Below, in pieces: positions 2,899-36,949 of a stretch of DNA of 43,106 bases (positions are counted from its first letter, which is position 1; every line of letters begins with the position of its first letter). The notes below the pieces were generated by a model. It was not told where the DNA came from, ran no database searches, and saw only the letters and a program-made list of their open reading frames with translations. Origin of the DNA: an uncultured Bacillales bacterium (lineage in GTDB: Bacteria; Bacillota_I; Bacilli_A; RFN20; CAG-826); the NCBI GenBank assembly GCA_946630435.1, contig CAMOYS010000002.1, forward strand, positions 1-43,106. Direction: 5' to 3'. The position numbers and the translations under genes were made by a program.

Positions 2899-4704
2899 AT
2901 GAAGAAATATTTAAGATTCATGTTTGAGTTAACTGAAGGTTATCGTAAACTATACCTTCTTCAGCTTTCCCTCATTGTTATATCAATCTTTTTAACAATG
3001 CTTTCTTCATACACCGTTAAGATTGTTATCGATTGCTATACCGAAACTAATGGTGTTATTAATATCTATCAACCAAGTTTACTTGGTCCTATTGGTAACT
3101 TTATCGTTTTAATATTTGGTGGACCTGATTTTATCATGGATAATAAATGGATCTTAGCCATTGGAGTTATTGGCTTTGGTTTATTAGGAGTTGGTTCATT
3201 TATTGTTAGAGGATTAATTAGAGGCCATGTTAATACCGGTATTTCAAAAAGAATTAGATTAGATCTTTTTAACCATATTGAAAGACTTCCTTATAGTGTT
3301 ATTAAAACTCATAATAATGGGGATTTCTTACAAACTTGTATGAGAGATGAACAAGTTTTAAGAGAATTTGTTACTTGGAGATTTAATCAGTTATTCCAAA
3401 CCTTAATGACAATGATTATCTCTTTTACAATTCTTTGTACGATTGAATGGAGATTAGCTTTAGTAAGTATCGCAGCGATTCCTTTACTTATTCTTTATTC
3501 TGTTTTTGTTGTTAAAAAGGATGAAAGATTATATCGCGCAACTGATGATTCTGAGGCAGTTGTTATAGGAAAAATTGAAGAAAACATCAATTCCATCAGA
3601 GTGGTAAAAGCCTATAATAACGAACGATTTGAGATTGATGAATTTAATAAAGATTTAAAAGATTATAAAGATAAATTCAAACGTTGGAGAAGATTCTCAA
3701 TGTTATTTATCGCTTCTAGTGACATCTTAGTCTTTGGCCAAATTATCGCGACTGGCTTAGTTGGTGGAGCTTTCACTTATTTTGGAGATATTACCGTAGG
3801 CACAATGGTTATTGCTACTACATATACCGCTTCAGTTATTTGGCCAGTTAGAGAATGTATTAACACGATTATTGATTACGCTAAAGCGACTGTTTCTATT
3901 GATAGAATGATGGAAATCTTTAATACCCCTTATGAAGATTTAGATAAGGGCGAGGATTTCGATATTAAAGGTGATATTGAATTTGATAATGTTTCCTTTG
4001 CTTTTGATGATGATAAAGAAAACCCATTTATTAAGAATTTATCTTTCAAAATTAAAAAGGGAATGACAGTAGCCTTTATGGGTAAAACAGGAAGTGGTAA
4101 ATCCACTACTGCTCATTTATTAACTAAACTTTATGATTACGATTCTGGATCTATCAAAATTGATGGAGTGGAGCTTAAAGATATTTCCAAAAGATGTGTT
4201 AGAAGAAATATCTCTATGGTCCTTCAAGAACCTTTCTTATTTTCCCGTACTGTATTAGAAAACTTAAGAATTAAAGAAAAAGACGCACCAATGGAGAAAA
4301 TTATTGAAGCCACTTCTACTGCGGATATGCATAAAACAATCGAAGGTTTTTCAAATGGTTATGATACCTTAATCGGTGAAAGAGGAACCACTTTATCAGG
4401 TGGACAAAAGCAAAGAATAGCAATGGCAAGAACGCTTTTAAATGAGTCTCCTATTGTTATTTTTGATGATAGTTTAAGCGCAGTTGATGCGGAAACAGAT
4501 GTGAGAATTAGAACGGCTTTAAAACATAGACAATTTAAATCCACTAACTTAATTATTACTCATAGAGTAATGACTGCACAAAACGCTGACTTAATTGTCG
4601 TTTTTGAAAACGGAACTGCAACTGAAATTGGAACACATAAGGAACTAATTAACAAACATGGTTTCTATGAAAAGATATATAAGATTCAAACGAGGATAGA
4701 GTAG
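2899..4704 (+). CDS. ABC exporter half-transporter (TMD-NBD), degenerate-site subunit of a heterodimer
   Basis: Six-helix TMD. Walker A GKTGSGKST, signature LSGGQ, Walker B IVIFDD (Asp replaces the catalytic Glu), H-loop ITHR. Confidence 0.9.
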   Translation: MKKYLRFMFELTEGYRKLYLLQLSLIVISIFLTMLSSYTVKIVIDCYTETNGVINIYQPSLLGPIGNFIVLIFGGPDFIMDNKWILAIGVIGFGLLGVGSFIVRGLIRGHVNTGISKRIRLDLFNHIERLPYSVIKTHNNGDFLQTCMRDEQVLREFVTWRFNQLFQTLMTMIISFTILCTIEWRLALVSIAAIPLLILYSVFVVKKDERLYRATDDSEAVVIGKIEENINSIRVVKAYNNERFEIDEFNKDLKDYKDKFKRWRRFSMLFIASSDILVFGQIIATGLVGGAFTYFGDITVGTMVIATTYTASVIWPVRECINTIIDYAKATVSIDRMMEIFNTPYEDLDKGEDFDIKGDIEFDNVSFAFDDDKENPFIKNLSFKIKKGMTVAFMGKTGSGKSTTAHLLTKLYDYDSGSIKIDGVELKDISKRCVRRNISMVLQEPFLFSRTVLENLRIKEKDAPMEKIIEATSTADMHKTIEGFSNGYDTLIGERGTTLSGGQKQRIAMARTLLNESPIVIFDDSLSAVDAETDVRIRTALKHRQFKSTNLIITHRVMTAQNADLIVVFENGTATEIGTHKELINKHGFYEKIYKIQTRIE

Positions 4705-4706
4705 AT

Positions 4707-6638
4707 ATGGCGGTACTAACTGAAGAAAGAGAACCAATCAAACGTTTGAGTGTTAAATCATTCTCTCAAATCTTTAAGTATGCCTTAAGACATTGGCCAT
4801 ACTTTGTTTTCGTTATTATTGCGATGGTTGTTACTTCTTTCTATGACGCTTCATTTACTCCAATGATGAATAAGTCACTTGTTAAAGCTTTAGAAGGAAT
4901 GACTGTTGCCGGAAATGATTTAGCATCCTTTAACATTAATGTTGAGATGATATTTGGGATTAACTTTAATCTAAGATTCTATGAATTTATGGGTTTATTC
5001 CTCTTCTCAATGCTTGTTAGATGTGTATCTATTTTCTTTACCTTATATTTAGCGGACTTATTATCCGTTCAAATTATGGATGATTTAAGAAGAGAATCAT
5101 TTGAAAAGGTCCAACAACTTAGTTTCTCTTATTTTGATAAAACTCCAACTGGATGGATTCTTGCTCGTATGCAAAATGATACTTCCTCTGTATCTGATTT
5201 ATTAGCGTGGGGCTTAGTTAGATTCTTCTGGACGATATTTGAAATCTTCTTCTTACTCATCACTATGTTCTCTACTTCTTGGGAATTAACTTTGTTAATC
5301 TTAACTTTATCTCCAGTTATTATGATTGCTACACCAATCTTCCAACACTTCTTACTTAAGTTCCACCGTATCGCTCGTAACGCTTATTCTAACTATGTTA
5401 GATGGTTATCGGAATGTATTAACGGAACTTCTACAATTAAGACACTTGGCATTGAAGATAATGTTTATCATGAAGCATCAGAAGTTGTGGATGATATCCG
5501 TAAGAAACTAAAAAGAGCTATGGTTCTCCGTTCTTTCTTTGGGCCATTTGTTAACTTAGTTTCTTCCTTATCCATTGGACTTGTTATTCTTATTTGTTAT
5601 CCAAACATCAATAATCCAGGTGCATGGTTAGTTGTTGATTCTTCTTTATTCGTCTTATTCGTTAGCTCAGTAAGTGAGGTATACACTCAAATAAGTGACT
5701 TCTCTGAAATCTATAATGAATTTGTTGCTAACCAAGCTAATGCTGAAAAGATTATGGCGCTTATAAATGAAGTCCCAGAACTAGAAGATAGGCCAGATGT
5801 TATAGAAAAATATGGTACTTTACTTAATCCAAAACTAGAGGCGTATGAACCAATTGAAGGTGATATTGAATTTAAAAATGTCTCATTCTCTTATCTACCT
5901 GAAATCGAAGTAATTCATAATTTAAACCTTCATATTAAAAAGGGAACAAGTTTAGCGATTGTGGGAGAAACTGGAAGTGGAAAGACCACTACTGCGAATT
6001 TATTATGTCGTTTCTATGAACCTAGTGAAGGTGAAATTTTAATTGATGGAGTAAATTATAAAGATCGTTCTGTCGGTTGGTTACGTAATTCAATTTCTTA
6101 TGTCCAACAAAACCCATTCATCTTTACAGGTACATTTAGACAGAATATTGCTTATGGCAAAATTAACGCGACTGATGAAGAAATTAAGATGGCCGCACAT
6201 ATTGTCGGTATCGATAAATTTATCGAAGAACAAAAAGATGGTTATGATACTGTTCTTTCTGATGGAGGAAATCAATTATCACTTGGTCAAAAACAATTAA
6301 TATCTTTTGCTAGATCAATAGTGCGTAACCCAAGAATCTTAATTTTAGATGAAGCTACTTCTTCAATTGATACTGAATCTGAAGCTTATGTTAGAGGCGC
6401 TATTGATAAGATTCTTGATGGAAGAACTTCGATTATTATCGCGCATAGATTATCAACAATTGTTAACTGTGACCGCATCATCATGATGGAAAACGGGGTC
6501 ATTATTGAAGATGGAACACATCGTGAACTAATGGCGAAAAAAGGAAGATATTTCACTCTTTATATGTCTCAGTTCCAGGATTTAAAGATTGATACTCAGA
6601 TTGAAACATACGAAAGAGAACAGAAATTAGCGAAATAA
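4707..6638 (+). CDS. ABC exporter half-transporter (TMD-NBD), consensus-site subunit of a heterodimer
   Basis: Starts 2 nt after the previous stop. Walker A GETGSGKTT, degenerate signature LSLGQ, canonical Walker B ILILDEATS, H-loop IAHR. Confidence 0.9.
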   Translation: MAVLTEEREPIKRLSVKSFSQIFKYALRHWPYFVFVIIAMVVTSFYDASFTPMMNKSLVKALEGMTVAGNDLASFNINVEMIFGINFNLRFYEFMGLFLFSMLVRCVSIFFTLYLADLLSVQIMDDLRRESFEKVQQLSFSYFDKTPTGWILARMQNDTSSVSDLLAWGLVRFFWTIFEIFFLLITMFSTSWELTLLILTLSPVIMIATPIFQHFLLKFHRIARNAYSNYVRWLSECINGTSTIKTLGIEDNVYHEASEVVDDIRKKLKRAMVLRSFFGPFVNLVSSLSIGLVILICYPNINNPGAWLVVDSSLFVLFVSSVSEVYTQISDFSEIYNEFVANQANAEKIMALINEVPELEDRPDVIEKYGTLLNPKLEAYEPIEGDIEFKNVSFSYLPEIEVIHNLNLHIKKGTSLAIVGETGSGKTTTANLLCRFYEPSEGEILIDGVNYKDRSVGWLRNSISYVQQNPFIFTGTFRQNIAYGKINATDEEIKMAAHIVGIDKFIEEQKDGYDTVLSDGGNQLSLGQKQLISFARSIVRNPRILILDEATSSIDTESEAYVRGAIDKILDGRTSIIIAHRLSTIVNCDRIIMMENGVIIEDGTHRELMAKKGRYFTLYMSQFQDLKIDTQIETYEREQKLAK

Positions 6639-6664
6639 AAAGAACCTCGGCGGAGGTTCTTTTA
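6637..6664. terminator. bidirectional Rho-independent terminator between convergent ABC and gpmA genes
   Basis: AGAACCTC (6641-6648) / GAGGTTCT (6653-6660), 8-bp stem with loop GGCG. Flanked by an A-run on the 5' side and a T-run on the 3' side. Confidence 0.7.
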
Positions 6665-6678
6665 ATACTTTGTATTAA

Positions 6679-7425
6679 TTATTTAGCTTTACCTTGGTTA
6701 GCAACTGCTTCCATTTGGGCTTTAAGTTCAGCTTCATCCATTAAATAATAATGTTTAACAGCTTTCATATTATCATCAAATTCATAGACAAGTGGGACAC
6801 CGGTAGGAATATTAACTCCAACGATTTCTTCATCTTTCATATTGTCGAAATATTTAACTAAAGCACGGAGAGAGTTACCATGGGCAACGATAAGAACACG
6901 TTTACCTTCTTCCATTTCAGGTTTAATAACTTCTTCAAAATATGGAACGGCACGAGCAACTGTCATTTCAAGAGATTCATGAAGTGGAAGATCTTTTTTA
7001 TCAACAGTTCTAAATTGAGCTTGGAGAGCTGGGTTTCTTGGATCATCTTCTTTAAGAGCTGGAGGTGGGCAATCATAAGATCTTCTCCAAATCTTAACTT
7101 GTTCTTCACCGTATTTAGCAGCAGTTTCGGCTTTATTTAAACCTTGAAGAGCACCGTAATGACGTTCGTTAAGTCTCCAAGATTTATAAACTGGGAGCCA
7201 TTCTCTATCAAGTTCAAATAAAACATTGTTCATGGTGTGGATAGCTCTTTTAAGTAAGGAGGTATGAACAACATCAAAGTCATAACCTTCTGCTTTTAAG
7301 GTTTTACCAGCGCGGTGAGCTTCTTCAACACCCTTAGGAGAAAGTTCAACATCGGTCCAGCCAGTGAAAAGATTTAATTTATTCCATTCAGACTCGCCGT
7401 GTCTAATTAAAACTAATTTATGCAT
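6679..7425 (-). CDS. gpmA: 2,3-bisphosphoglycerate-dependent phosphoglycerate mutase
   Basis: [29 protein letters not shown] (RHGESxWN catalytic-His motif), 248 aa full length. AHGNSLRAL is the second His motif. Confidence 0.93.
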
Positions 7426-7587
7426 ATAAAATCCTTCTTTCTTTTAACAATATATCATAGATAAATATTTTTGTCTTAAGTCTTTTTTATTTAGTAGTCC
7501 AATAAACATCTTATAAATAAAGAAAAATTAACGAATAATGTGATAATAAATGAAAATTCTTATAAAATATGATTAGGTCTTAAAGAT

Positions 7588-8583
7588 ATGGAATTAAAAG
7601 ATTTAGCTATTATTGATTTACACCTTCATCTTGATGGAGCGTTATCGCCTGAAATTATTATAGAAAGAGCAATGAAAGAGAATATTGATCTCCCTACATA
7701 TAATAAAGATGAATTAAGAAAATATTTAGAAGTCAGTAAACACTGCGAATCTTTAAACGAATACTTAACTAAATTTGATATTCCAAATCTTGTTCTACAA
7801 ACTAAAGAAGGTATCTATGAATGCACATTGGATTTGCTTCATAGACTTTCATTACAAGGACTTAAATATGTTGAAATTAGAATGGCTCCTCAATTATCCA
7901 CTACTAAAGGTTTAAGCCAAGAAGAAGTTGTTATCGAATTAATAAATTCTTCCCAAAGAGCCGAGCTCCTATATGGAATTTCCTCAAATATCATTCTTTG
8001 TATGATGAGAGGAGACACCAATAGAACGAAGAATTTAGAAACAATCGATGTTGCTTATAAATATTTAAATAAAGGAGTTGCTGCGCTTGATTTAGCGGGT
8101 GCAGAAGCCATATTCCCAAACGAATTATTTAAAGAAGAATTTAACAGAATTAAAGAATTAGGAATTCCATTAACGGTTCATGCTGGTGAAGCAAGCGGAA
8201 GCGAATCAGTTAGGAGTGCTATTAACTTTGGCGCGGTTCGAATCGGACACGGAGTTCACGCGATAGAAGATATGGAATTAATGTGTGAGATAGTAGGAAA
8301 ACGAATTCCTCTTGAAATCTGCCCTACTTCAAATTTAGACACTAAAGCAGTTTCTAGTCTTGAAGAAATACCAGTTAAGAAATTCCTAGAGTTAGGAGTA
8401 AAAGTGACAATTAATACTGATGATCCAACTGTCAGTAATACTACCTTGCACGATGAATATAAGCTTTTAGAAAATATTGGTTTAAGCGAGGAAGAACTAA
8501 AAACAATTGCTTTAAATTCAATTGAAGCTGCTTTTATAAATAATGAGAAAAAAGAAGAGTTAAAATCATTTCTTCCAAAATAA
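7588..8583 (+). CDS. add: adenosine deaminase
   Basis: DLHLHLDGAL, VHAGE and TINTDDP metal and catalytic motifs. 331 aa. Confidence 0.88.
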   Translation: MELKDLAIIDLHLHLDGALSPEIIIERAMKENIDLPTYNKDELRKYLEVSKHCESLNEYLTKFDIPNLVLQTKEGIYECTLDLLHRLSLQGLKYVEIRMAPQLSTTKGLSQEEVVIELINSSQRAELLYGISSNIILCMMRGDTNRTKNLETIDVAYKYLNKGVAALDLAGAEAIFPNELFKEEFNRIKELGIPLTVHAGEASGSESVRSAINFGAVRIGHGVHAIEDMELMCEIVGKRIPLEICPTSNLDTKAVSSLEEIPVKKFLELGVKVTINTDDPTVSNTTLHDEYKLLENIGLSEEELKTIALNSIEAAFINNEKKEELKSFLPK

Positions 8584-8626
8584 TGCGAATTTTATTAACT
8601 TTTAGTGTTAATAATATATAATTTAA

Positions 8627-9955
<1,329 letters not shown>

Positions 9956-26498: not shown

Positions 26499-26528
26499 AA
26501 AAAAGCCTCCAATTTGAATTTTGGAAGC
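26499..26528 (-). terminator. Rho-independent terminator after the phosphohexomutase gene
   Basis: On the minus strand, GCTTCCAA / TTGGAGGC forms a stem with one G.U pair, followed by TTTTTT. Confidence 0.6.
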
Positions 26529-26542
26529 TATTTAGAAGTATT

Positions 26543-28222
26543 TTATTTCATGAATTCGTTAATCGTTTTAACGTATTTATTAAGGTGTTCTTCACCTAAC
26601 GCAAAGACATAATATTTAATCTTTGGTTCAGTTCCTGATGGACGAATAGTAATTGTTTCACCATCTTTAAGGAATAATTTAATAACGTTAGATTTTGGTA
26701 AATTAGTTGGTTCTTTATGATCTTTGAAATGGATAAAGCCTTCTTGATAATCACCGATATGGTCAATTTCTCCAAATAATTCGTGAGCTTTATTACCCCT
26801 AAAGGAATCCATAATAGCAAGAATCTTTTGTTTGCCTTCAACACCACTAAGTTCAAAAGCAAGTGTCGCGGTTTTGAAATCGCCAAATTCTTTATAAAGT
26901 TCAGTTAATCTATCAAACAATGTCTTGCCTTCATGTTTATATTTGTTAGCCATTTCGGCAACAAGTAAGCAAGCATTAACCGCGTCTTTATCACGAACAT
27001 CAATATTAGTAAGATAGCCACAGGATTCCTCGAATCCCAATAAATATCTTTCTACTTCACCTTTTTGTTCAAGGAAGAAGATTTGTTCACCAATGAATTT
27101 AAAACCAGTTAAAACTTCATTAACCTGGACACCATATTGTTTAGCCATAACGTTAACCATATCGCTAGAAACGATGGTTTTAACAACGACTGGTACTTTT
27201 GGTAAGGTGCCATTAGCTTTCTTAACATGATAAATAAAGTCAAATAAGAGAATACCAACTTCATTGCCAGTTAAAATAACAGGTTTTCCATTTTGATTAA
27301 CAACGACACCAACTCTATCACTATCAGGATCGGTAGCGAGTAAAACATCATCATTATTTTTAAGCATTAATTCGATACCAAGTTTTAAGGCTGGTTCCAT
27401 TTCTGGGTTTGGATATGGACAAGTTGGGAAATCGCCATTTGGTTTAGCTTGTTCGTTAACAACATCAACATTGAAATTGGTTTTTCTTAAAACAGTAGTA
27501 ACGCATCTATAACCTGCACCATAAAGTGGAGTGTATGCTATATTAAGAATTCTTTTACTATTATCTAATGAACATTTAAGAGTGGAATCAAAGTAATCAG
27601 ATATGAGTTTTTCATCAATAAAATTAATCTTTCCACGGACTACTAATTTATCAAAATCCCCATAGCAAATCCCCTTAAATGGTGATAATGATTGAATTTG
27701 TTCATAGACAGCATTAGCGGCATCAATTGTTAATTGGCAGCCATCGCTTCCATAAACTTTATAGCCATTATATTTAGATGGATTATGAGAAGCAGTAACA
27801 ACAATACCTGCATCACACTTTAAATATCTAACTGCATAAGATAGAGCCGGAGTAGGCATTAATTCTTTATAAATATAAACAGTAATATTATTACTTGCTA
27901 AAACGTTAGCAGCTTCTAAAGCAAAATTACGAGAGTTATTTCTACTATCATAGCCAATAGCAACGGAATTAGTCCTTCTTTGTTTTAAAAGGTATTGGGC
28001 TAAGCCTTGAGTGGCTCTTCTAATAACGAAACGGTTCATGCGGTTTGTACCAACACCCATGACACCTCTTAAACCGCCAGTTCCGAATTCTAAATCAGAA
28101 ATAAAGCGATCAGTAATTTCGTTTTCATTGTCTTTAATAAATATTAATTCAGCTTTTTCATCGCTTGATAAAGATGGCTCATTTAGCCATAAGTTGTATC
28201 TTTGTTCGACTTCTTTAAGCAT
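26543..28222 (-). CDS. alpha-D-phosphohexomutase (phosphoglucomutase/phosphomannomutase)
   Basis: Active-site TASHNPSKYNGYK, metal loop DPDSDR, sugar loop GFEESCG. 559 aa. RBS AAGAGGAG. Confidence 0.9.
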   Translation of the reverse strand: MLKEVEQRYNLWLNEPSLSSDEKAELIFIKDNENEITDRFISDLEFGTGGLRGVMGVGTNRMNRFVIRRATQGLAQYLLKQRRTNSVAIGYDSRNNSRNFALEAANVLASNNITVYIYKELMPTPALSYAVRYLKCDAGIVVTASHNPSKYNGYKVYGSDGCQLTIDAANAVYEQIQSLSPFKGICYGDFDKLVVRGKINFIDEKLISDYFDSTLKCSLDNSKRILNIAYTPLYGAGYRCVTTVLRKTNFNVDVVNEQAKPNGDFPTCPYPNPEMEPALKLGIELMLKNNDDVLLATDPDSDRVGVVVNQNGKPVILTGNEVGILLFDFIYHVKKANGTLPKVPVVVKTIVSSDMVNVMAKQYGVQVNEVLTGFKFIGEQIFFLEQKGEVERYLLGFEESCGYLTNIDVRDKDAVNACLLVAEMANKYKHEGKTLFDRLTELYKEFGDFKTATLAFELSGVEGKQKILAIMDSFRGNKAHELFGEIDHIGDYQEGFIHFKDHKEPTNLPKSNVIKLFLKDGETITIRPSGTEPKIKYYVFALGEEHLNKYVKTINEFMK

Positions 28223-28245
28223 GGATATCTCCTCTTTTCGACAAT

Positions 28246-28274
28246 ATTGTATATTTGTATAGTTTTAATTACAA
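28246..28274 (-). promoter_or_regulatory. candidate internal promoter in front of the phosphohexomutase gene
   Basis: Minus strand: TTGTAA (28269-28274), 17-nt spacer, TACAAT (28246-28251). Confidence 0.3.
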
Positions 28275-28287
28275 GTAATTAGCTCAG

Positions 28288-29361
28288 CTAAATATATTTA
28301 TTGTTATCAACACCTTTAAGTTTATTAACGACATCTTTAACTTCGTCGATATGATCTTTTTTCGCAATTAAGATGACATCATTAGTATTAACAATAACCA
28401 TATCTTCTAAACCAATAGTAACAAACATCTTCTTAGTAGAAGAAACAATGGTTGTGTTTTTAGTATTATAATTCAAAACTTTAGCGCGTTTAGCAATGTT
28501 CCCGTTTTCATCTTTTTGATGATGTCTATCAATTGCTAACCAGCTGCCTAAGTCATCCCATTCAAATGTTCCTTTAGTAACATAAATGTTATCGGCTTTT
28601 TCCATAACACCATAGTCAATGGAAATCTTTTCTAAACTAGCAAATGTGGTTGCATAGTTTTGATAGAATTCAAGTTTAGGAAGTTTAAATAAGTTATCTA
28701 ATGTTTCATATTGTTCTGGCATATATTTTTGGAAAGCATGCATCATTGTGGAGAGCTTATAAATAAACATTCCCGCATTCCATAAATATCCACCATTTTT
28801 AACGTATTTTTTAGCCACTTCTAAGGATGGTTTTTCCTTAAAAGAGCGGACTTTATATAGATTATTTTCGACTTCTTCACCTTCTTCAATATAGCCAAAG
28901 CCAGTGTCTGGGTGAGAAGGGTTAATACCGATTGTAACGATAGCGTCGTTATTCTCTAAGAACTTGGTAGCCTTCTCAATTAGTTCAACATATTTCTTAT
29001 CATCATCAATATATTGATCACTTGGAATAGTTACTACGACAACATCTTGGTTATATCTATCTTGAATATAACGAAGGGCTAAATTAATCGCAGGAGCGGT
29101 ATTTCTACCTACTGGTTCTAAAATAACGTTTTCGTCTTGAATTTCAGGTAAAGAAAGTAAAACAGCTTCTTTATATTTTTCACCGGTAACAACATAAATA
29201 TCTTTATAAGGGGTAAGAGATTTAACTCTTTCAGCAGTATCAAAAATTAATGGGTGTCCACTACCAGAAAGATCTAAGAATTGTTTAGGTTTAGCTGTAC
29301 GGCTTTCAGGCCAGAAGCGTTCACCAACACCACCAGCGATAATTAATGTAATAATTTTCAT
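28288..29361 (-). CDS. sugar-1-phosphate nucleotidyltransferase, mannose-1-phosphate guanylyltransferase-like (no cupin/PMI domain)
   Basis: MKIITLIIAGGVGERFWPESRTAKPKQFLDL matches the GDP-mannose pyrophosphorylase N-terminal signature (AGGxGxRxWPxSRxxxPKQF). Only 28 nt after the upstream gene, with RBS AAAGGAAAA. Confidence 0.8.
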   Translation of the reverse strand: MKIITLIIAGGVGERFWPESRTAKPKQFLDLSGSGHPLIFDTAERVKSLTPYKDIYVVTGEKYKEAVLLSLPEIQDENVILEPVGRNTAPAINLALRYIQDRYNQDVVVVTIPSDQYIDDDKKYVELIEKATKFLENNDAIVTIGINPSHPDTGFGYIEEGEEVENNLYKVRSFKEKPSLEVAKKYVKNGGYLWNAGMFIYKLSTMMHAFQKYMPEQYETLDNLFKLPKLEFYQNYATTFASLEKISIDYGVMEKADNIYVTKGTFEWDDLGSWLAIDRHHQKDENGNIAKRAKVLNYNTKNTTIVSSTKKMFVTIGLEDMVIVNTNDVILIAKKDHIDEVKDVVNKLKGVDNNKYI

Positions 29362-29389: not shown

Positions 29390-31108
29390 TTAATCAGTTA
29401 CAACGACATCATCACAAGTATCATCGAGAAGCTGACCAAGTACTTTATTATAGATTTCTGAATCAATTTCAAAACGTTTAAATCTAGCGTGATAAATCAA
29501 ACGAAATGCTGCAAATTTCTTACATATCTTCCACTCTTTTTCTAAATCCTTACCTTCAAAATAGACTGGGAAGAATGCATCATAAAACTTCTTCATAGTA
29601 GCTCTATCAAAGTGAAATATTTGCATACAGCGTTCATCTGAAACTGCATGAGCAAATAAATACATTGAACCAATATCATAATATGGCGAACCGATAGCAA
29701 GATCTGCTAAGTCAATCATGATATTATCACCTTTATCAGTCATAACTGCGTTTCCTGTATGGAAGTCACCATGAATTAATGTTTTAGCGTCTTTATATTC
29801 AAGGATTAAGGCTTTTAATTTTTCAACAATATCTTTATCTAATTTAGGCGCTAAAATGTTCACAAAACCTAATTCGATTTCACTTTGATCTGGGAAAATT
29901 CCTGGAAGAGGAGTGATTTTATGGAATTCACGAGTCATTAAGGCAAAACGTTTTGCGATTTCTGGAATCTTTTCAGGTTCATTAGCGACTGCTCTAGAGA
30001 ATGAAATCTTATTAACAACTCTTTCAAATGAGAAACCAACACGATCGCCAAAGTAACAGATTTCACCACTAATAGGAGTGTTAACGCCAGTAAGCAAAGC
30101 TTCTTTAGCCATAATCTTCTCTTTTTCAATCATGTTAACTGGAATTTTGTTAGAGAAGAGTTTAATCATTATATCTTCGTCTTTTTCATCAAAATATGTT
30201 GTAGAAGTATAGCCATCGCCAGAAATATACATTCCATCAAGTGAGCCATGGCCATATTTCTTAACAAGTGGAATCAAAGAAGAAATACCATTATCTTCAA
30301 GTTTAGAGGCAATATTTGGACTTACTAAACGTAAGAACATTCGATAACCATTTTGGTGTAAACGAATTAAAGTTCTCATTGCACCAAAAGATAAACCAGA
30401 TAATTTGTCGCAGTTAATAATGTTTTCTTTACCTTTATCTAAAACTTTTTCAATTTCAAATGAATCTTCTTTAGAAACATAACCTTCAAGAAGAATTTCA
30501 CTATCAGTTTTTGTGATTTTAAATTCGATATAGCGGTCAAAGACATCGTGGACATTTTGTTCAAATTCTTTAAAGGCATAATATTCTTTTAATTCACTTA
30601 AAGCGTCCACTAAAGAAAGATAATACCAAGCGTGATTTCTTGGATCATTATCATGGAATCTTTCCCAAATCTTATTGCCAATTTCAAGGTAGTCTTGTTT
30701 AATAGCTCTAATGTTAGATAATTTATCGCCTAAGGCCACCATTTTGGCTTCTTTAGAGGCATTCTTAAGGTGATTTAGGGTTGCTTGTTTTTTATCTTTC
30801 CAAGAAACAGCATTGCCATCTAAATCAACATCATAAGAAGTCTCAGATTTTACAATTGAGGCAACTTCTGCGCCGAATTCTTGCTCAATGTCTTCAATTT
30901 TAATAGGAGTATCTTCAGCAACATCATGAAGGACTGCCGCGGCTAAAAGAGTTTGATCATTACTCATTGTGCTAACGATACTTAATGCTTCAAGAGGATG
31001 AACGATATAAGGGAATCCTTTGCCTCTTCTTTCCGTATTAGCGTGAGCTTTTGTTGCGAATATAATCGCTCTATCTAATAAATTTGAATCAATATATTTT
31101 TCTGCCAT
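29390..31108 (-). CDS. three-domain protein: RelA/SpoT-type HD (alarmone hydrolase-like), STAS-like domain, APH-fold phosphotransferase
   Basis: aa 10-180: AHANTERRGKGFPYIVHPLEA...AAVLHDVAEDT (RSH hydrolase HD motifs). aa 195-282: ILLEGYVSKEDSFEIE...NCDKLSGLSFGAMRTLIRL...FLRLVSPNIASKLEDNGISSLIPL aligns with the STAS protein of the same operon. aa ~300-572: Brenner motif HGDFHTGN (29750-29773) and IDLADLAIGSPYYDIG, as in APH(3')-type kinases. Confidence 0.75.
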   Translation of the reverse strand: MAEKYIDSNLLDRAIIFATKAHANTERRGKGFPYIVHPLEALSIVSTMSNDQTLLAAAVLHDVAEDTPIKIEDIEQEFGAEVASIVKSETSYDVDLDGNAVSWKDKKQATLNHLKNASKEAKMVALGDKLSNIRAIKQDYLEIGNKIWERFHDNDPRNHAWYYLSLVDALSELKEYYAFKEFEQNVHDVFDRYIEFKITKTDSEILLEGYVSKEDSFEIEKVLDKGKENIINCDKLSGLSFGAMRTLIRLHQNGYRMFLRLVSPNIASKLEDNGISSLIPLVKKYGHGSLDGMYISGDGYTSTTYFDEKDEDIMIKLFSNKIPVNMIEKEKIMAKEALLTGVNTPISGEICYFGDRVGFSFERVVNKISFSRAVANEPEKIPEIAKRFALMTREFHKITPLPGIFPDQSEIELGFVNILAPKLDKDIVEKLKALILEYKDAKTLIHGDFHTGNAVMTDKGDNIMIDLADLAIGSPYYDIGSMYLFAHAVSDERCMQIFHFDRATMKKFYDAFFPVYFEGKDLEKEWKICKKFAAFRLIYHARFKRFEIDSEIYNKVLGQLLDDTCDDVVVTD

Positions 31109-31109
31109 T

Positions 31110-32189
31110 TTATTCTTTTAACACTCCTGATTTTCTAGCAATTTCACAAATGCGTTTTGCTTGTCTAGCGTTGCTCTTTCTTTCACCATAAATAAGACCT
31201 AAGAATAAGCCAACGCCAACTTCACCACCACCCGCTTTAAGAATGTAGGTAATGAGAAGATAATATAAAGCGGTTGTAGAAGACATAATATCGATATCAG
31301 TATCACTGAAGGCTTTAACCGCTAAAGTATAAGCGTCATCAGCGTATGATTTAAATATCTCATCTAATTGACCTAAATTAGTTATATTCATCTTCTTTAA
31401 TGCAATTAAATATGGGGTAGTTGAAACCGTTGTGATTTCCATATTATTAATCTTCGCAATACGTTCACTAAGAATAAGGAAGTGGCCCATACCAAGATAT
31501 TCTCTAAAGGAATCAGCGTTAAGTTCAACATCATTAAGATTACCTGATTCAACAAGGCTCTTAACGACACGACGATATTCAGATAAGTTAAATCTTAATT
31601 CAGAGAATTGCTTATCCGCTAATTCAAGAAGGCCAGCTAAACTAGATAAAGTTCTAAGTGATTCACGAGGAATTTCAACATCGCTTTTATAACCAGTATC
31701 ATGGTAGATAGAAGCCCAAACATGTTGAAGCGCGGTTCTCATTTGAAGTTCGAATCTAAGTTCATTTACTAAAGGATGTTTTTCATCATAATAAAGGGAC
31801 TTAGGAATTCGACATATATAGTGAAGAGACATATAACCAAAGCGGTCAACATCATGAAGTTTTCTTTTATCAACTGTATTTTCCCAGTCAATTTCAAAAA
31901 CATCACTTATAATGCCTGCGAATTTATCAACTTCATCAGTATAAAAGGTAACAACACGAGCACCGACTAAATCGGTTAAGTCTGATAAAGAGGTGTATTT
32001 ATATCCTTTTCTTTCGAGTTTTCCTTCTAAAGAATCACGTTTTTTAATACGAGATTCGACAGAATTGATAAACATGTCATGCTCACTAACGATTTTATTT
32101 AGTGCTTTATCAATGATGTCTTTTTGAATTTTTAGTGATTCATAAGCGGCATCAAATTCTTCAAGAATCATTTGAGCTTTAATGTCCAT
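31110..32189 (-). CDS. RelA/SpoT-domain small alarmone synthetase with a ~150-aa C-terminal extension
   Basis: Synthetase motifs SRIKKRDSLEGKL, DLVGARVVTF, RFGYMSLHY and ELQMRTALQHVWASIYHDTGYK are all present. RBS GGAGG precedes the ATG. Its stop lies 1 nt before the HD-protein start. Confidence 0.85.
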   Translation of the reverse strand: MDIKAQMILEEFDAAYESLKIQKDIIDKALNKIVSEHDMFINSVESRIKKRDSLEGKLERKGYKYTSLSDLTDLVGARVVTFYTDEVDKFAGIISDVFEIDWENTVDKRKLHDVDRFGYMSLHYICRIPKSLYYDEKHPLVNELRFELQMRTALQHVWASIYHDTGYKSDVEIPRESLRTLSSLAGLLELADKQFSELRFNLSEYRRVVKSLVESGNLNDVELNADSFREYLGMGHFLILSERIAKINNMEITTVSTTPYLIALKKMNITNLGQLDEIFKSYADDAYTLAVKAFSDTDIDIMSSTTALYYLLITYILKAGGGEVGVGLFLGLIYGERKSNARQAKRICEIARKSGVLKE

Positions 32190-32204: not shown

Positions 32205-34082
32205 TTATAAGTTCTTTTTAATTGTTAAAATGTTTTGATTGTTTTTGTATTCGTAAGAAATTTCATCCATTGATTGTTTAACAATAAAGATACCTAAACC
32301 ACCAATTTGTCTTTCACTAGCGTCTAAAGTGATATCAGGATTTTCGAGTTCAAGAGGGTTAAATGGTCTTCCATTATCCACGAATGAAATTGAAACAGAG
32401 ACAGGTTCTTCTTTAAGTTCAATACGAACGATAGCTTTACCAACTTCTGGATTATAAGCAAATTTAACAATATTAGAGAAGAGTTCATCAATCGCGACAT
32501 TGATTTGATAAATCGCTTTCTTGTTATTAGTAACTTTGCTTAAGAAATCATTAACAAATTCGGTAACAACATCGAGATTTTCCGATAAGGAGTCCACTGA
32601 AATCTCTTTTTTAAGGATTGGTGTGCCTTTGAAAAGAACGCTGATAATAGTGATATCATCAAATTGATCTTCACCATTAACAAACTTATTAATTTCAGCT
32701 TGAACAACCTTAGTTAATTCTTCAGGATTTAAGTCAGGATTTGCGTTAAGAATATTGAGTAATCTTTCTTCGCCAAATATTTCTTCGTTTGCGTTAGTGG
32801 CTTCAGTAACCCCATCAGTGTAGAAGAATATTTGATCTCCCGGAAGAAGTTTAAAGGATGTGGCTTTAAATTTAGTTTCTTCTAAACCACCTAAAACAAA
32901 TCCACGAGGAAGTTTAACATATTCGTATTTATTGTTTCTTTTAATAAGAATTGGATTATGACCTGCGTTAGCGACGATTAATTCACCAGTTAAAATATTT
33001 AATCGAGCGGTAACTGCTGTAACAAACAATCCACTTTGATTGAATTGATATAGTTCTTGGTTAGCAAGTTCGAGGGCCTTTTCTAAATAGATACCTGTTT
33101 TTGTAACGGATTTAAGAAAAGTTTTTGTCCCCATCATCTCTAAAGCAGCAGGAACACCTTTACCACTTACATCACCAATAGTGAAAATTAATTCATGAGG
33201 ATTACACATATAGAAGTCATAGAAATCTCCACCAACTTCTTTAGCAGGATCCATAATCGCATATAGTTCAAATTCGCTTGTGTTAGGAAATTCGCGAGGA
33301 AGAATGCCAACTTGAATGTTAGAAGCAATCCCTAGCTCTGCAGCAATCTTTTCTTTATCTTTTGTAAAATCACTATCTTTCTTAAGAAGTTTTTCAGTAC
33401 GAATAGTGAGTTGAAGAGAAATAAAGAACATTAAGGTGAGTAGGACCATTCTCGACATGTAATAATAGACAACTATCTTAACATATCTATTCTCGCCATA
33501 TTGCATAAGGCTATTAAGGTATTCAATTCTCTCATTTACATCTGATGTTTCAATTTTCATTGATTCATCAATACCAGTGTTATCCATACCACCCATTAAA
33601 TATGGGTCCCATTCACCAAATAGCATCGCAAAATACATGCAAAGTAGCATCATGATTGATACGGAGATAAAGATAGCTAAGCTAGTTCTTGGACTATAAT
33701 AGTGGCACGCTAAAACAATAATAACAGCCCAGCCTAAGAGCGAATGCTTAGGAATGATTACATTAATAACGGAAACAACAAAGATAAATAAAGAGAGTAA
33801 GTAATACTTAAACCAAGGTTGTTTAATGTATTTTGTTTTATAGAAGAATAACGGGGTTAATAGTAGAACCATTGAGATAGGAATCACAATGTTAAGGATG
33901 GTCATTATTGATTGCATCCCAAGTTCAAAAACACCAGTTATATAGAAAACCCATATAAGTAGCATTAAGAAAGAGCCAAAAGCACAACCAAATGCTAACG
34001 CTTTATTAGCGGAATATTCATTCTCTTGTAATGTTCTAGAATCAATAGCACGCTTTTTGAAAACAAGAAACGGATTCTTCAT
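32205..34082 (-). CDS. polytopic membrane sensor fused to a PP2C/SpoIIE phosphatase and an RsbW/SpoIIAB-type serine kinase (HATPase)
   Basis: About 6 TM helices in aa 27-225. PP2C motifs GGDFYDF, IGDVSGKGVPAAL, FYTDGVTEA and DDITII in aa 245-485. HATPase N-box DELFSNIVKFA, DNGRPF and GGLGIFIVKQ in aa 495-625. Confidence 0.85.
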   Translation of the reverse strand: MKNPFLVFKKRAIDSRTLQENEYSANKALAFGCAFGSFLMLLIWVFYITGVFELGMQSIMTILNIVIPISMVLLLTPLFFYKTKYIKQPWFKYYLLSLFIFVVSVINVIIPKHSLLGWAVIIVLACHYYSPRTSLAIFISVSIMMLLCMYFAMLFGEWDPYLMGGMDNTGIDESMKIETSDVNERIEYLNSLMQYGENRYVKIVVYYYMSRMVLLTLMFFISLQLTIRTEKLLKKDSDFTKDKEKIAAELGIASNIQVGILPREFPNTSEFELYAIMDPAKEVGGDFYDFYMCNPHELIFTIGDVSGKGVPAALEMMGTKTFLKSVTKTGIYLEKALELANQELYQFNQSGLFVTAVTARLNILTGELIVANAGHNPILIKRNNKYEYVKLPRGFVLGGLEETKFKATSFKLLPGDQIFFYTDGVTEATNANEEIFGEERLLNILNANPDLNPEELTKVVQAEINKFVNGEDQFDDITIISVLFKGTPILKKEISVDSLSENLDVVTEFVNDFLSKVTNNKKAIYQINVAIDELFSNIVKFAYNPEVGKAIVRIELKEEPVSVSISFVDNGRPFNPLELENPDITLDASERQIGGLGIFIVKQSMDEISYEYKNNQNILTIKKNL

Positions 34083-34083
34083 A

Positions 34084-34398
34084 TTAGTCCTCTTCGATAG
34101 TTAAAATGCTACTGAAACCAGTCATGTCGAAGGTTTCCATAATTAAGTCGTTAACATTTCGAAGAATCATCTTGCCTTGTTTTGACATTGTTTTATGGGT
34201 GATTAAAAGGATTCTTAAACCTGCTGAGGAAAGATAATCAAGATCCTTAAAATCAAAGTATAAAGTTTTAACTCCTTCAAGCGCACCATTAAGTGCGGCA
34301 TCAAGTTCAGGAGCGGTAGATGTATCAAGCCTACCTCCTAAAGAAATAGTTAAAACGTCGTTTTCTCTTTTTAAATCAATTTTCATATTGTTCTCCAC
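34084..34398 (-). CDS. STAS-domain protein (RsbV/SpoIIAA-like anti-sigma-factor antagonist)
   Basis: 104 aa. LTISLGGRLDTSTAPELDAAL...FDFKDLDYLSSAGLRILL...MILRNVNDLIMETFDMTGF carries the conserved phosphorylatable Ser motif. RBS GGAG. Its stop lies 1 nt before the next ATG. Confidence 0.85.
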   Translation of the reverse strand: MENNMKIDLKRENDVLTISLGGRLDTSTAPELDAALNGALEGVKTLYFDFKDLDYLSSAGLRILLITHKTMSKQGKMILRNVNDLIMETFDMTGFSSILTIEED

Positions 34399-34410: not shown

Positions 34411-34439
34411 ATTATCTATTAAAGATAAAGATTTTTCAA
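34411..34439 (-). promoter_or_regulatory. candidate sigma-A promoter of the STAS/PP2C/alarmone operon
   Basis: Minus strand: TTGAAA (34434-34439), 17-nt spacer, GATAAT (34411-34416). It lies between the upstream terminator and the STAS start codon. Confidence 0.4.
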
Positions 34440-34585: not shown

Positions 34586-36844
34586 TTATTGAGGTAATGA
34601 TAAATTGGACATTCCAAGGACAATAGCCATTCCCATGTAATAGATTGTAACATGATCATTAGCCTTTTGAATGAAGGAATCAGCGGCTTCAACTTTCTCA
34701 TAATCTGTACCACCTTTTTGAGTGTTTTCAACAGCAGATTGAGTCATTCTTTGTAAACCATTTGCTGGAACACCGTCATAGTAAGCATAACCACCAGCAG
34801 TTTCAAAGACAGGAGCAGATGCAGAATTAAGTCCTCTAATTAAAGCATGATTTCTTACTTGTTCAACATAAGATGGTGTACCTTCAGAAAGTAAACTAAG
34901 GATAACAAGTTGGAATTGAGCAGGATCGCTAATTTGATATTTAGCCATTAATTCAGCCACTATTTTAGAGGCTTCTTCATCACCAGTTTCTGCTTTTTGT
35001 AAGTTTTCGGCAATGTATTTAGCTTCATTAAAGTTTGTGTTATCTGGTTGACTATAATTGAATTTATCAACTGTTTCACTATTCTTAATAATAACTTCAC
35101 CACAAGTTGGAACATTAGAAATACCAGCGACACTACCAGACTTATTAAAGGCAACGAAATTTAAGAATGTCTTTTCTGGAACTGGAAATAATGATGGGAT
35201 TCCTGTTTCTGGTGGGAAAGCTTTTGGATTAACAATTGTTGGATTGCCATTGACATCATAAGCGAATGATTTACCGAATGGAACGAATAAATCAGACATA
35301 GCTTTGATTTGTGGTGCTAATACATTAGCGCCAAATTGGACAAACCAAGCTTCTTCACCGGTAATATAGTTAACTAAACTACAATCTTCAAAGACGCATT
35401 TACCAACGTTACCATTTGGAGTGTAGCAAGGAACATTTACGTCTTCCGCAAATTGGAATTGGCTGACTGTTTCAGCACCTTCTTCAGGAATATCAGTATG
35501 GTCTTGAATAACAATTGGACCACCACATTTAGAGAATTCACTATTCTTAGCATTAATTAATGAACCAGCGTTATAGAAGAAAGAATTATAGTTGTCATAA
35601 CTCTTACATTTATCAACTTCAAAGACAAATTCATTTGAACAATGCTCTGCAAAATAGTTGATAAAGTTAGAACGAGAAATAACGTTATAAGCAGTAGTCT
35701 TAATAGCATCATAACCAGCTTTATTAAAGATTAAACCACCAGCATATTTGTTGTCTTCATTGCTTTGAGCAAGAGGAGCGTTACCAGTAATATTAATGTT
35801 TCTAACATTAAAGATACCATTTCTAGTACGAATTAAGGCTGTGTGAGATAAAGGTTTGTCAGTTTCTGTATCTTCATTACGAACATTAAGTGGTAATTGA
35901 GAGAAATCAAGTTTGAAGTAATTACCATTTAAAGTTAATTCGGTATTGGAAATATGACCATAAACGTGGGCGGTATCTTTATAAGTTCCATAATATTTTG
36001 GATCAACACCATCAGCTTCACTATAAATATATTCGCTAGGAATATCGTTAGCGGTAATTGAAATATTTTGGTGCAAGATAACTGCACTTGGATCTAATTC
36101 AGTTGACATACCGTTAGCAGTTTTAAATGCATCCCAAACATGTTTGAGACCACCAACGTTTCCTGGGTGCCAATCGTTATCAGCGACATCACCATGTCTA
36201 TCATCAAGATAACCAAGTTCTTTAGCGGTATAAGCGTTATAACCATCGATAACTTGAACTTCATAAGTAACTTTAAAGTTTTCATTAGCTTTTTGTTCAT
36301 TAGTTAAACCACCTGGCATAACAGTTACTCTAAAGGTTTTGCCAACAGCGTTAACGCCAAATTTAACGTCGCATGTTCTAGCGTTTTCAATTTTAAAGTC
36401 ATCGCTAGTAGCAGGAACAAATTCACCTTTATCGTTTTTAACAGTAAGGGAGAATTCATAATCATAATCCCATTCATCTTGATTATGTTCATTTAAGTTT
36501 TGATCAAAGACATGGAATTGTGGCTTAAAGTTAACTGCATTATCATCACCGACAAAGTAACCTTGAGTGCGGTCCATAAATTCTTCACGTTTTTCCGACT
36601 TTTCTTTAATGTTAGAAGCGTAATCAATAAAGGATTGTCTTTTAGTGACTGGAGCAGCGATTTTTAAAGTTACTTCTTCTTCACTAGTGGTAGATGTTGT
36701 TTCACTAGTAGTTTCGCTTGTTGTTTCACTTGTTGTTGTGGAAGTATCTTCACTAGAACTAGTTGGAGATGGATTTTGACCACAAGAAGCAAGGATTAAA
36801 GAAGTAACACTAAGTAGTAACAATTTATGTAATTTTTGTTTCAT
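34586..36844 (-). CDS. large surface lipoprotein (about 750 aa), function unknown, possible beta-helix-like repeats
   Basis: Start at ATG 36842-36844 (MKQKLHK...), preceded by GGAGGATATAAC. Lipobox LILASC with the Cys codon at 36782-36784, followed by an S/T/E-rich linker. NINITGN- and NGNYF-type segments hint at a parallel beta-helix, which is weak evidence. Confidence 0.8.
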   Translation of the reverse strand: MKQKLHKLLLLSVTSLILASCGQNPSPTSSSEDTSTTTSETTSETTSETTSTTSEEEVTLKIAAPVTKRQSFIDYASNIKEKSEKREEFMDRTQGYFVGDDNAVNFKPQFHVFDQNLNEHNQDEWDYDYEFSLTVKNDKGEFVPATSDDFKIENARTCDVKFGVNAVGKTFRVTVMPGGLTNEQKANENFKVTYEVQVIDGYNAYTAKELGYLDDRHGDVADNDWHPGNVGGLKHVWDAFKTANGMSTELDPSAVILHQNISITANDIPSEYIYSEADGVDPKYYGTYKDTAHVYGHISNTELTLNGNYFKLDFSQLPLNVRNEDTETDKPLSHTALIRTRNGIFNVRNINITGNAPLAQSNEDNKYAGGLIFNKAGYDAIKTTAYNVISRSNFINYFAEHCSNEFVFEVDKCKSYDNYNSFFYNAGSLINAKNSEFSKCGGPIVIQDHTDIPEEGAETVSQFQFAEDVNVPCYTPNGNVGKCVFEDCSLVNYITGEEAWFVQFGANVLAPQIKAMSDLFVPFGKSFAYDVNGNPTIVNPKAFPPETGIPSLFPVPEKTFLNFVAFNKSGSVAGISNVPTCGEVIIKNSETVDKFNYSQPDNTNFNEAKYIAENLQKAETGDEEASKIVAELMAKYQISDPAQFQLVILSLLSEGTPSYVEQVRNHALIRGLNSASAPVFETAGGYAYYDGVPANGLQRMTQSAVENTQKGGTDYEKVEAADSFIQKANDHVTIYYMGMAIVLGMSNLSLPQ
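36699..36734 (-). repeat. three imperfect tandem 12-nt units encoding a (T-T-S-E)n linker
   Basis: Plus strand reads gtttcactagta / gtttcgcttgtt / gtttcacttgtt. It translates on the minus strand as TTSETTSETTSETTS, directly after the lipobox. Confidence 0.8.
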
Positions 36845-36949
36845 GTTATATCCTCCGCGCTTTATAAGCGCCAAAAAATCATAACCCTTATTAAAAATAA
36901 AAGCAATAAATAAAGAGGATTGGAGAGAAATAATTAGAATAAAAAAATT

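Follow-up and report, generated by a model that had tools for sequence, protein, structure and literature searches.

The 43,106-nucleotide contig CAMOYS010000002.1 (assembly GCA_946630435.1) of an uncultured Bacillales bacterium, the whole of which is referred to here as the window, encodes a 572-residue protein in which a predicted small alarmone hydrolase (SAH) domain, a STAS domain, and an APH-fold kinase domain follow one another in a single polypeptide. The architecture is that of a real, conserved three-part protein that recurs among homologues, and the gene belongs to a conserved set that comprises an alarmone synthetase, the hydrolase, the kinase, a phosphorylatable STAS protein, an RsbW-like kinase, and usually a PP2C phosphatase with a membrane or dCache sensor. 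The linkage of synthetase, hydrolase, kinase, STAS, RsbW-like kinase, and PP2C is tight and extends across phyla. The individual domains belong to known superfamilies (RSH hydrolase, STAS, APH fold); their combination and the module are undescribed, widespread, and tractable rather than a new principle. The gene set points to an undescribed way in which gut and rumen bacteria control stress nucleotides. The conserved linkage is surprising, and it is directly testable by specialists in the stringent response or in partner switching; the mechanism proposed for it below is one that we infer. The features of the three-domain protein are as follows.

29390 to 31108, minus strand: three-domain open reading frame (ORF), 572 codons plus stop, predicted to encode a small alarmone hydrolase, a STAS domain, and an APH-fold kinase.
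30530 to 31108, minus strand: predicted RelH-type small alarmone hydrolase domain (HD_4), residues 1–193, from profile, structure, and motifs.
30254 to 30526, minus strand: predicted internal STAS domain without a phosphorylatable residue, residues 195–285, from profiles, AlphaFold2 topology, and homologue alignment.
30386 to 30388, minus strand: codon of Phe241, at the position of SpoIIAA Ser58 in alignments; Ser240 (30389 to 30391) is at the −1 position.
29393 to 30241, minus strand: predicted APH-fold kinase domain of the TIGR02172 lineage, residues 290–572, from Pfam APH, TIGR02172, and invariant residues.

An original prediction, made from the letters of the window, had proposed this order of domains and had not recognized it as described. 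The order is borne out by the Pfam matches to HD_4 and APH, by STAS profiles, and by an AlphaFold2 model, and no paper on the HD_4, STAS, and APH combination was found in the open-access literature. The model of the whole protein, built with an 88-sequence alignment, has a pLDDT of 93.8 and a pTM of 0.82, and both interdomain junctions are modeled at a pLDDT of about 90–95, giving a compact three-domain body with confident linkers. Homologues were taken as the best 120 homologue clusters, and residue conservation was counted over 121 aligned sequences. The full HD-STAS-APH architecture is present in 68 of the 120 clusters with gap-free junctions, and about 15 representative clusters at 50% identity, among 1.84 billion representatives, have the full three-domain span. 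The concern that separate genes were joined into this ORF by an error of assembly or sequencing draws on the existence of the same domains as adjacent separate genes in other lineages. The 68 clusters are, however, independent and come from many assemblies with the same continuous architecture, and the model is confident across both junctions. The chance of an artefact is negligible, and an assembly error can be excluded for practical purposes.

The N-terminal domain has the features of a RelH-type SAH. Pfam HD_4 matches residues 14–138 (6e-18, 65.5 bits, against a cut-off of 27.2). In phmmer comparisons, the HD part matches the Leptospira levettii SAH (7qoe) at 4.6e-27, Corynebacterium RelH (7qoc) at 1.8e-19, and the hydrolase halves of Rel enzymes at 1e-14. 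Foldseek aligns the AlphaFold2 model with RelH and SAH structures at TM scores of 0.85–0.87 and an rmsd of 1.6 Å, with sequence identities of 28–33%. The motifs HPLEA (residues 37–41) and AAVLHDVAEDT (residues 57–67), on which the first assignment to the RSH hydrolases had been based, are found in the ORF as quoted. Arg27, His37, His61-Asp62, Glu65-Asp66, Asp128, and Asn132 are invariant in 121 of 121 aligned sequences; these residues correspond to the Arg of HD1, the His of HD2, the HD pair, the ED pair, and the Asp and Asn of DKLxN, respectively. Profile, structural, and motif evidence agree that the N-terminal part is a RelH-type SAH, predicted to be active, as had been proposed. With 572 residues and two further domains, the protein departs from the single-domain form by which SAHs are defined. 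The same type of hydrolase domain is also N-terminal in other long proteins (P0366, 782 residues; P0385, 638; P0430, 684; P0441, 697) and C-terminal in many proteins of 250–350 residues that carry N-terminal extensions of no known type. Such long or extended proteins constitute further uncharacterized multidomain alarmone hydrolases.

The region that follows, query residues 195–285, is a discrete module of about 91 residues that is present in 68 of the 120 homologue clusters and cleanly absent from 52, which are HD-APH proteins of about 470 residues, mostly from Bacteroidales. The window protein's own middle region has no Pfam match; 18 of 32 family members match Pfam STAS on their own (best 1.1e-6). 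An hhalign comparison of the family profile with the stand-alone STAS protein of the same operon gives a probability of 96% (E 2e-9), which upholds the proposed relationship between the two, and the quoted motif CDKLSGLSFGAMRTLIRL lies at residues 233–250. A profile search of the PDB with the middle region finds SpoIIAA-type antagonists (4hyl, 1.4e-5; 1sbo; 1th8). A structure prediction had been suggested as a check on the fold; in the AlphaFold2 model, residues 197–283 follow the order β-β-α-β-α-β-α-β, which is the STAS topology. The top 50 matches of a Foldseek search with the whole model are HD and APH structures. As judged from profiles and model, the middle region is a true STAS domain.

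The position of the phospho-acceptor in this domain differs from that first proposed. The codon of Ser240 is correctly placed at 30389 to 30391, and Ser240 had been taken as the phosphorylatable residue, with S240A and S240D variants suggested. In all alignments, however, SpoIIAA Ser58 and RsbV Ser56 lie opposite Phe241, and Ser240 lies opposite SpoIIAA Asp57, the helix N-cap. The candidacy of Ser240 fails on both counts, being off by one and at a position that is not conserved, and the suggested variants would address the wrong residue. Among 67 long-form homologues, including the window protein, position 241 is Phe in 46, Tyr in 12, and another residue in nine, with Ser or Thr in none; position 240 varies among Asn, Asp, Ser, Thr, Lys, and Glu, and position 245 is an invariant Arg. 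A Ser occupies the phospho-site in 48 of 48 free STAS proteins of related loci and in five of five STAS-APH proteins. The alignments indicate that the internal STAS domain has lost its phospho-acceptor and cannot be phosphorylated canonically. With a conserved aromatic residue and never Ser or Thr at this site, the proposal that the domain is a canonical phospho-substrate of the RsbW-like kinase falls away. The other half of that proposal, a partner role toward the RsbW-like domain, may still hold.

Genes of the Y_phosphatase3 family flank the module in some related loci (related loci are designated by L numbers), as at 8413 to 9207 in L004, where a PAP2 phosphatase is also found upstream, and at 3606 to 4490 and 7697 to 8590 in L087. 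These genes may replace or supplement the PP2C phosphatase. The idea that a Tyr at the phospho-position tracks Y_phosphatase3 genes was discarded: L087 fits, L092 has the Tyr and no such gene, and L004 has such a gene and no STAS domain.

The C-terminal domain matches Pfam APH (PF01636) at residues 372–490 (1.2e-12, 48.6 bits, against a cut-off of 23.2). The quoted catalytic motif HGDFHTGN is confirmed at residues 446–453 (29750 to 29773), and IDLADLAIGSPYYDIG at residues 465–480. Lys316, Glu330, Asn453, and Asp466 are invariant in 121 of 121 sequences, and Asp448 of the HGD motif is present in 120 of 121. The nearest curated family is TIGR02172, which the domain matches at 3e-47 with 161.3 bits, short of the 228.2 bits set as the curated cut-off. 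Relatives score higher: P0098 passes with 242.2, and a stand-alone Bacteroidales APH protein (227.2) and P0010 (223.4) come close. By these scores, the kinase domain falls in the TIGR02172 lineage, though it is not a strict member by cut-off. Foldseek matches APH(3′) and APH(2″) structures generically, at 14–18% identity, and the sequence matches to hygromycin and methylthioribose kinases have E values of 0.02–0.1; naming a substrate from these neighbors was rejected, as they are generic APH-fold matches only. In keeping with the earlier assignment, the domain is an APH-fold kinase with intact catalytic residues that is predicted to be active and belongs to an uncharacterized lineage. The TIGR02172 family was originally defined from five Fibrobacter succinogenes paralogues. 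In L057, from an F. succinogenes metagenome-assembled genome (MAG), one long ORF (6447 to 8927) matches PP2C and STAS (STAS 3e-27) and adjoins hydrolase and synthetase genes; there is no APH gene in the L057 locus.

The window protein, first regarded as unusual, represents one among many ways in which the parts of a conserved multigene module are fused, and these fusion states are interchangeable. The window's domains were used to search for related loci, and fusion states were tallied over the 86 that were found. The states in which hydrolase and kinase are linked are as follows.

HD-STAS-APH: 4 of 86 loci; synthetase in 4, free STAS in 4, HATPase_c_2 in 4, PP2C in 3; Bacilli, Erysipelotrichaceae, Atopobiaceae.
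HD-APH: 8 of 86 loci; synthetase in 7, free STAS in 5, HATPase_c_2 in 5, PP2C in 5; Bacteroidales.
HD with a separate adjacent APH gene, in either order: 30 of 86 loci; synthetase in 30, free STAS in 24, HATPase_c_2 in 26, PP2C in 24; Bacteroidales.
HD gene with a two-domain STAS-APH gene: 5 of 86 loci; synthetase in 1, free STAS in 3, HATPase_c_2 in 3, PP2C in 3; Oscillospiraceae, Clostridia, Alistipes.

In total, 47 of the 86 loci have the kinase either joined to the hydrolase in one protein or encoded by a neighboring gene, and the same parts also occur elsewhere as three separate genes. MAGs from the rumen and gut supply most of the related loci; the lineages are Bacteroidales, Clostridia, Erysipelotrichaceae, and other Bacilli. 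The two-domain STAS-APH family is very large in Clostridia; with the copy from L008 as the query, at least 8000 candidates were obtained, all significant, and the best 120 matches are all proteins of about 380 residues with PF01740 and PF01636. These are annotated only as “phosphotransferase”, “STAS domain-containing protein”, or “TIGR02172 family”. Residues 231–483 of the window protein are collinear with STAS-APH proteins across the STAS-kinase junction (E 4e-30). The clostridial STAS-APH proteins often adjoin an HD_4 hydrolase gene and the same switch genes (L008, L091): the gene order in L008 is hydrolase, STAS-APH, free STAS, and a membrane PP2C-RsbW-like fusion, and in a Eubacterium locus the hydrolase gene is directly upstream of the STAS-APH gene. 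Unlike the window protein, they lack a fused hydrolase and retain the canonical Ser of ISSAGLR; they are themselves uncharacterized. Because STAS-APH proteins are collinear with the window protein and are often encoded beside a separate hydrolase gene, the window protein appears to have arisen by fusion of a hydrolase gene to an adjacent STAS-APH kinase gene, with the STAS domain losing its acceptor. The STAS domain, described at first as embedded, is thus not an insertion into a hydrolase; it is best read as the N-terminal domain of a STAS-APH kinase onto which a hydrolase was fused.

The prevalence of the two-domain proteins bears on what the kinase acts on. In a serious rival reading, which we nevertheless consider unlikely, the APH-fold domain is a protein kinase that phosphorylates STAS proteins (its own STAS domain in the two-domain relatives, the free STAS protein here), the synthetase, or the hydrolase, with the internal STAS domain being a degenerate former substrate that now serves as a docking domain. 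The commonest architecture of the lineage is a Ser-keeping STAS domain fused to the kinase, some STAS-APH loci have no RsbW-like gene nearby (L090, which has no hydrolase nearby either), and there are weak NCBIfam matches to SrkA/YihE-type PRK11768 and to the spore-coat kinase CotI. Against this, an RsbW-like kinase for STAS proteins is already present in most loci; the solved structures that come closest are without exception small-molecule kinases, though at the low identity given above; and both HD-APH fusions and separate APH genes without STAS are common in Bacteroidales. A substrate among small molecules is preferred: the likeliest acceptor is a hydroxyl group on a nucleotide or ribose-type small molecule that belongs to the pathway of the hydrolase. 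The recurrent fusion of kinase and hydrolase, with or without the STAS domain, suggests that the two share a pathway and may use the same nucleotide.

The genes and signals that surround the three-domain gene in the window are the following.

31110 to 32189, minus strand: small alarmone synthetase, 359 residues (Pfam RelA_SpoT 1.6e-15).
31575 to 32189, minus strand: RelQ/RelP-like catalytic part of the synthetase, residues 1–205, from profile and Foldseek.
31128 to 31517, minus strand: helical C-terminal domain of the synthetase, about 130 residues (225–354), pLDDT about 90–95.
32205 to 34082, minus strand: membrane protein, 625 residues, with about six hydrophobic helices, PP2C, and an RsbW-like kinase.
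33393 to 34082, minus strand: the approximately six hydrophobic helices of the 625-residue protein.
32637 to 33200, minus strand: PP2C/SpoIIE phosphatase of the 625-residue protein (Pfam SpoIIE 2e-47).
32214 to 32585, minus strand: RsbW-like HATPase_c_2 kinase of the 625-residue protein (Pfam HATPase_c_2 3e-19; NCBIfam RsbW 2e-10).
34084 to 34398, minus strand: stand-alone STAS protein (anti-sigma-antagonist type) with Ser58 at the phospho-site (Pfam STAS 1e-15; TIGR00377 5e-20).
34411 to 34439, minus strand: best sigma-70-like promoter match upstream of the STAS gene, TTGAAA-17-GATAAT, 10/12; a weak consensus match only.
26504 to 26529, minus strand: terminator-like hairpin after the phosphoglucomutase gene; a weak consensus match only.

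The order of genes on the minus strand is free STAS, 625-residue protein, synthetase, and three-domain protein, with the synthetase stop lying 1 nucleotide before the ATG start codon of the hydrolase. Nine three-domain loci were examined (the window, L001, L002, L003, L005, L087, L088, L089, and L092). The synthetase is directly upstream in all nine, a free STAS gene is present in all nine, and an RsbW-like HATPase_c_2 domain is encoded in eight; the contig of the ninth ends 0.9 kb downstream. The partner-switching gene set of phospho-Ser STAS, RsbW-like kinase, and PP2C is encoded together here and recurs in related loci, and no sigma factor gene is present in the window's operon or in any listed neighborhood of the related loci. 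The 625-residue protein carries both opposing activities on the STAS protein in one polypeptide. Orthologous PP2C-RsbW-like fusions are found in L001, L003, L005, L008, L088, and L089, and the RsbW-like domain stands alone in L002 and L092. The sensor parts vary, from membrane helices in the window to dCache on PP2C in L006 and HisKA_7TM in L089. In a Bacteroidales module, L006 (8414 to 9733 and 10674 to 12572; L014 has the same genes), the RsbW-like domain is fused to a DAGK_cat/YegS_C domain of the lipid- or NAD-kinase-like kind; the L006 PP2C carries dCache_1, and an NMT1-family gene lies between. The free STAS protein aligns its Ser58 with SpoIIAA Ser58. Its ORF is listed from a GTG (104 residues), and orthologues have 99–100 residues; translation probably begins at the ATG of residue 5 (MKIDL...), at about 34386.

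The synthetase appears, from comparison with solved relatives, to be closer in type to RelQ/RelP than to the toxic synthetases. Among solved relatives, its catalytic part matches RelP and RelQ structures at profile E values of about 1e-16, and CapRel is remote at 0.003; Foldseek aligns the synthetase with 5dec at a TM score of 0.85, and the Foldseek list is dominated by the catalytic part. Versions of the protein from Bacilli, Acholeplasmatales, and Bacteroidales share about 50% identity, and the length is always about 360 residues. Its C-terminal domain has no Pfam match and no PDB sequence match even at E 10; every related locus retains it, with E values of 1e-21 to 1e-34 in loci other than that of the closest syntenic relative. 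This domain could be a regulatory handle of the synthetase and is a candidate for the contact point of the switch in lineages without an internal STAS domain. The synthetase-hydrolase pair might also be read as a toxSAS-type toxin-antitoxin or defense module, with a toxic synthetase, the fused hydrolase as a type IV antitoxin, and the STAS, kinase, and switch genes as triggers. The two genes are bicistronic and translationally coupled, as are FaRel and ATfaRel (PMC7229694), and the synthetase has a weak PADLOC match to the candidate system PDC-S33 (1.4e-17). The similarity of the catalytic part to the housekeeping enzymes and its distance from CapRel make this distinctly unlikely, as do the identity of the synthetase across Bacilli and Bacteroidales, a PADLOC search that found nothing for the three-domain protein, the STAS protein, or the PP2C-kinase, and the placement of the module among housekeeping genes and with sensor phosphatases, where no mobile-element context was seen.

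Genes for a mannose-1-phosphate guanylyltransferase-like protein (ManC) and a phosphoglucomutase/phosphomannomutase follow the three-domain gene after 28 nucleotides (26543 to 29361). The terminator-like hairpin at 26504 to 26529 marks a possible end of the transcription unit, and because of it these two genes may be cotranscribed with the module. They were considered as a link to a sugar-kinase role for the APH-fold domain; the link was dropped, as synteny of these genes with the module is limited to the closest relative, L001, and they do not adjoin the module elsewhere. Upstream, at 34586 to 36874, is a gene for a 762-residue predicted lipoprotein with a signal peptide ending in Cys, followed by the Ser/Thr-rich tract TSETTSETTSETTS; the protein at the syntenic position in L001 lacks a Pfam match.

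Taken together, the gene set is consistent with a partner-switching module that controls alarmone enzymes and not a sigma factor, with the internal STAS domain as a docking surface, a picture to which our analysis gives about an even chance. The membrane PP2C/RsbW-like protein would sense a signal and set the phosphorylation state of Ser58 of the free STAS protein accordingly, and this switch would act on the alarmone enzymes instead of on a sigma factor. The internal STAS domain, locked in an unphosphorylated-like state, would couple the hydrolase-kinase to the switch, either by competing with the free STAS protein for the RsbW-like domain or by binding the free STAS protein itself. The end effect would be to rebalance synthesis by the neighboring synthetase against degradation by the HD domain.

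Most of the uncertainty in this picture lies in the role of the internal STAS domain. An alternative is that this domain has no relation to the RsbW-like kinase and serves as a structural bridge, an oligomerization domain, or a nucleotide-binding allosteric domain between hydrolase and kinase. The compact body and confident linkers of the AlphaFold2 model are compatible with such a role, as is the loss of the phospho-site while Arg245 has stayed invariant in the 67 sequences, and STAS domains of other proteins are reported to bind nucleotides. The domain nevertheless remains recognizably similar to the antagonist-type STAS protein of the operon, it descends from a lineage that keeps the Ser, and switch genes co-occur in eight of the nine three-domain loci; the alternative seems rather improbable to us.

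Several observations weigh against the docking picture as a whole. The Bacteroidales versions without a STAS domain on hydrolase or kinase keep the RsbW-like, STAS, and PP2C genes, so that there the switch must work without an internal STAS domain, perhaps via the synthetase C-terminal domain. The clostridial loci with HD and STAS-APH genes mostly lack a synthetase, which is present in one of five, and its absence from the other four implies that the kinase-hydrolase pair also functions without this enzyme. The APH domain is only generically similar to known kinases, which leaves room for a protein-kinase role. Finally, gene neighborhood is correlation, not mechanism.

A bolder version of the partner-switching picture concerns the chemistry. 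SAHs are promiscuous and act on 3′-pyrophosphates and on the 2′-phosphate of NADPH (PMC9765508), which leaves room, as speculation, for an opposing kinase-phosphohydrolase pair. The kinase and hydrolase might form an opposing or sequential pair on a nucleotide and, with the synthetase, make and destroy an as yet undescribed derivative, a phosphorylated alarmone such as a 2′- or 3′-phosphorylated guanosine or adenosine polyphosphate, at a level set by the membrane-sensing partner-switching pathway. We regard this as rather unlikely; if true, the derivative would define a new second-messenger circuit that is widespread in gut and rumen Bacillota and Bacteroidota.

Little is known of post-translational regulation in SAHs (PMC9293644) or in small alarmone synthetases, and the module ties a synthetase and a hydrolase, physically and genetically, to a classical Ser-phosphorylation switch with sensor domains. 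If the proposed control is correct, it would be the first case of partner switching acting on (p)ppGpp-type metabolism, parallel to SiaABCD for cyclic di-GMP. The conserved kinase beside or fused to the hydrolase would represent either a new regulatory layer or new nucleotide chemistry. The natural fusion series of separate genes, HD-APH, STAS-APH with the Ser, and HD-STAS-APH without it supplies ready constructs. As the related loci are largely from rumen and gut MAGs, the module may have a part in how those communities cope with starvation and stress.

The module can be compared with several known systems, and it falls outside the narrower families: as an SAH the protein has more than one domain, its STAS domain has no phospho-acceptor, and the switch has no sigma factor. 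The structurally characterized RelH-type SAHs, Corynebacterium glutamicum RelH and L. levettii SAH (7qoc, 7qod, 7qoe; PMC9293644), have the same fold, and all of their catalytic motifs are found in the N-terminal 190 residues of the window protein. These enzymes are single-domain dimers, whereas here the hydrolase is joined covalently to a STAS domain and a kinase and is encoded inside a signaling gene set. Papers on RSH classification give the small RSH proteins a single domain, the one exception being DUF429 in actRel, and leave STAS and APH partners unmentioned; nothing relevant to TIGR02172 or to partner-switching control of alarmone enzymes was found in the open-access literature either. 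The long bifunctional Rel/SpoT enzymes likewise fuse an RSH hydrolase to a second phosphoryl-transferring catalytic domain and a regulatory domain. The second domain in the window protein is, in contrast, APH/protein-kinase-like and not a RelA_SpoT nucleotidyltransferase, and there is no TGS or ACT domain. The toxSAS-SAH pairs such as FaRel/ATfaRel (PMC7229694) also place a synthetase next to an RSH hydrolase; here, the synthetase is RelQ/RelP-like, the hydrolase is multidomain, and the module is chromosomal, sensor-linked, and highly conserved.

On the signaling side, the components of the SpoIIAA/RsbV-RsbW-RsbU system (PMC8256260) are all present in the window: a free STAS protein with a Ser at the Ser58 position, an RsbW-like HATPase_c_2 kinase, and a PP2C phosphatase. 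The differences are that the locus has no sigma factor, that a single membrane protein contains both kinase and phosphatase, in a fusion that recalls SypE, and that the likely outputs are enzymes. Precedents for partner-switching-type phosphorylation that acts directly on an enzyme are provided by SiaABCD of Pseudomonas aeruginosa, in which SiaC acts on the diguanylate cyclase SiaD (PMC8457831, PMC7647112), and by the Anabaena STAS-glycosyltransferase All4160 (with HenR and Alr3423), which is phosphorylated on its fused STAS domain and is active as a non-phosphorylatable variant (PMC13555669). The enzyme of SiaABCD makes a nucleotide second messenger, and the STAS domain of All4160 is fused to the enzyme that it regulates. 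The window differs from both in having alarmone enzymes and an APH-fold kinase, together with a second, free STAS protein; its non-phosphorylatable fused STAS domain resembles the active non-phosphorylatable variant of All4160.

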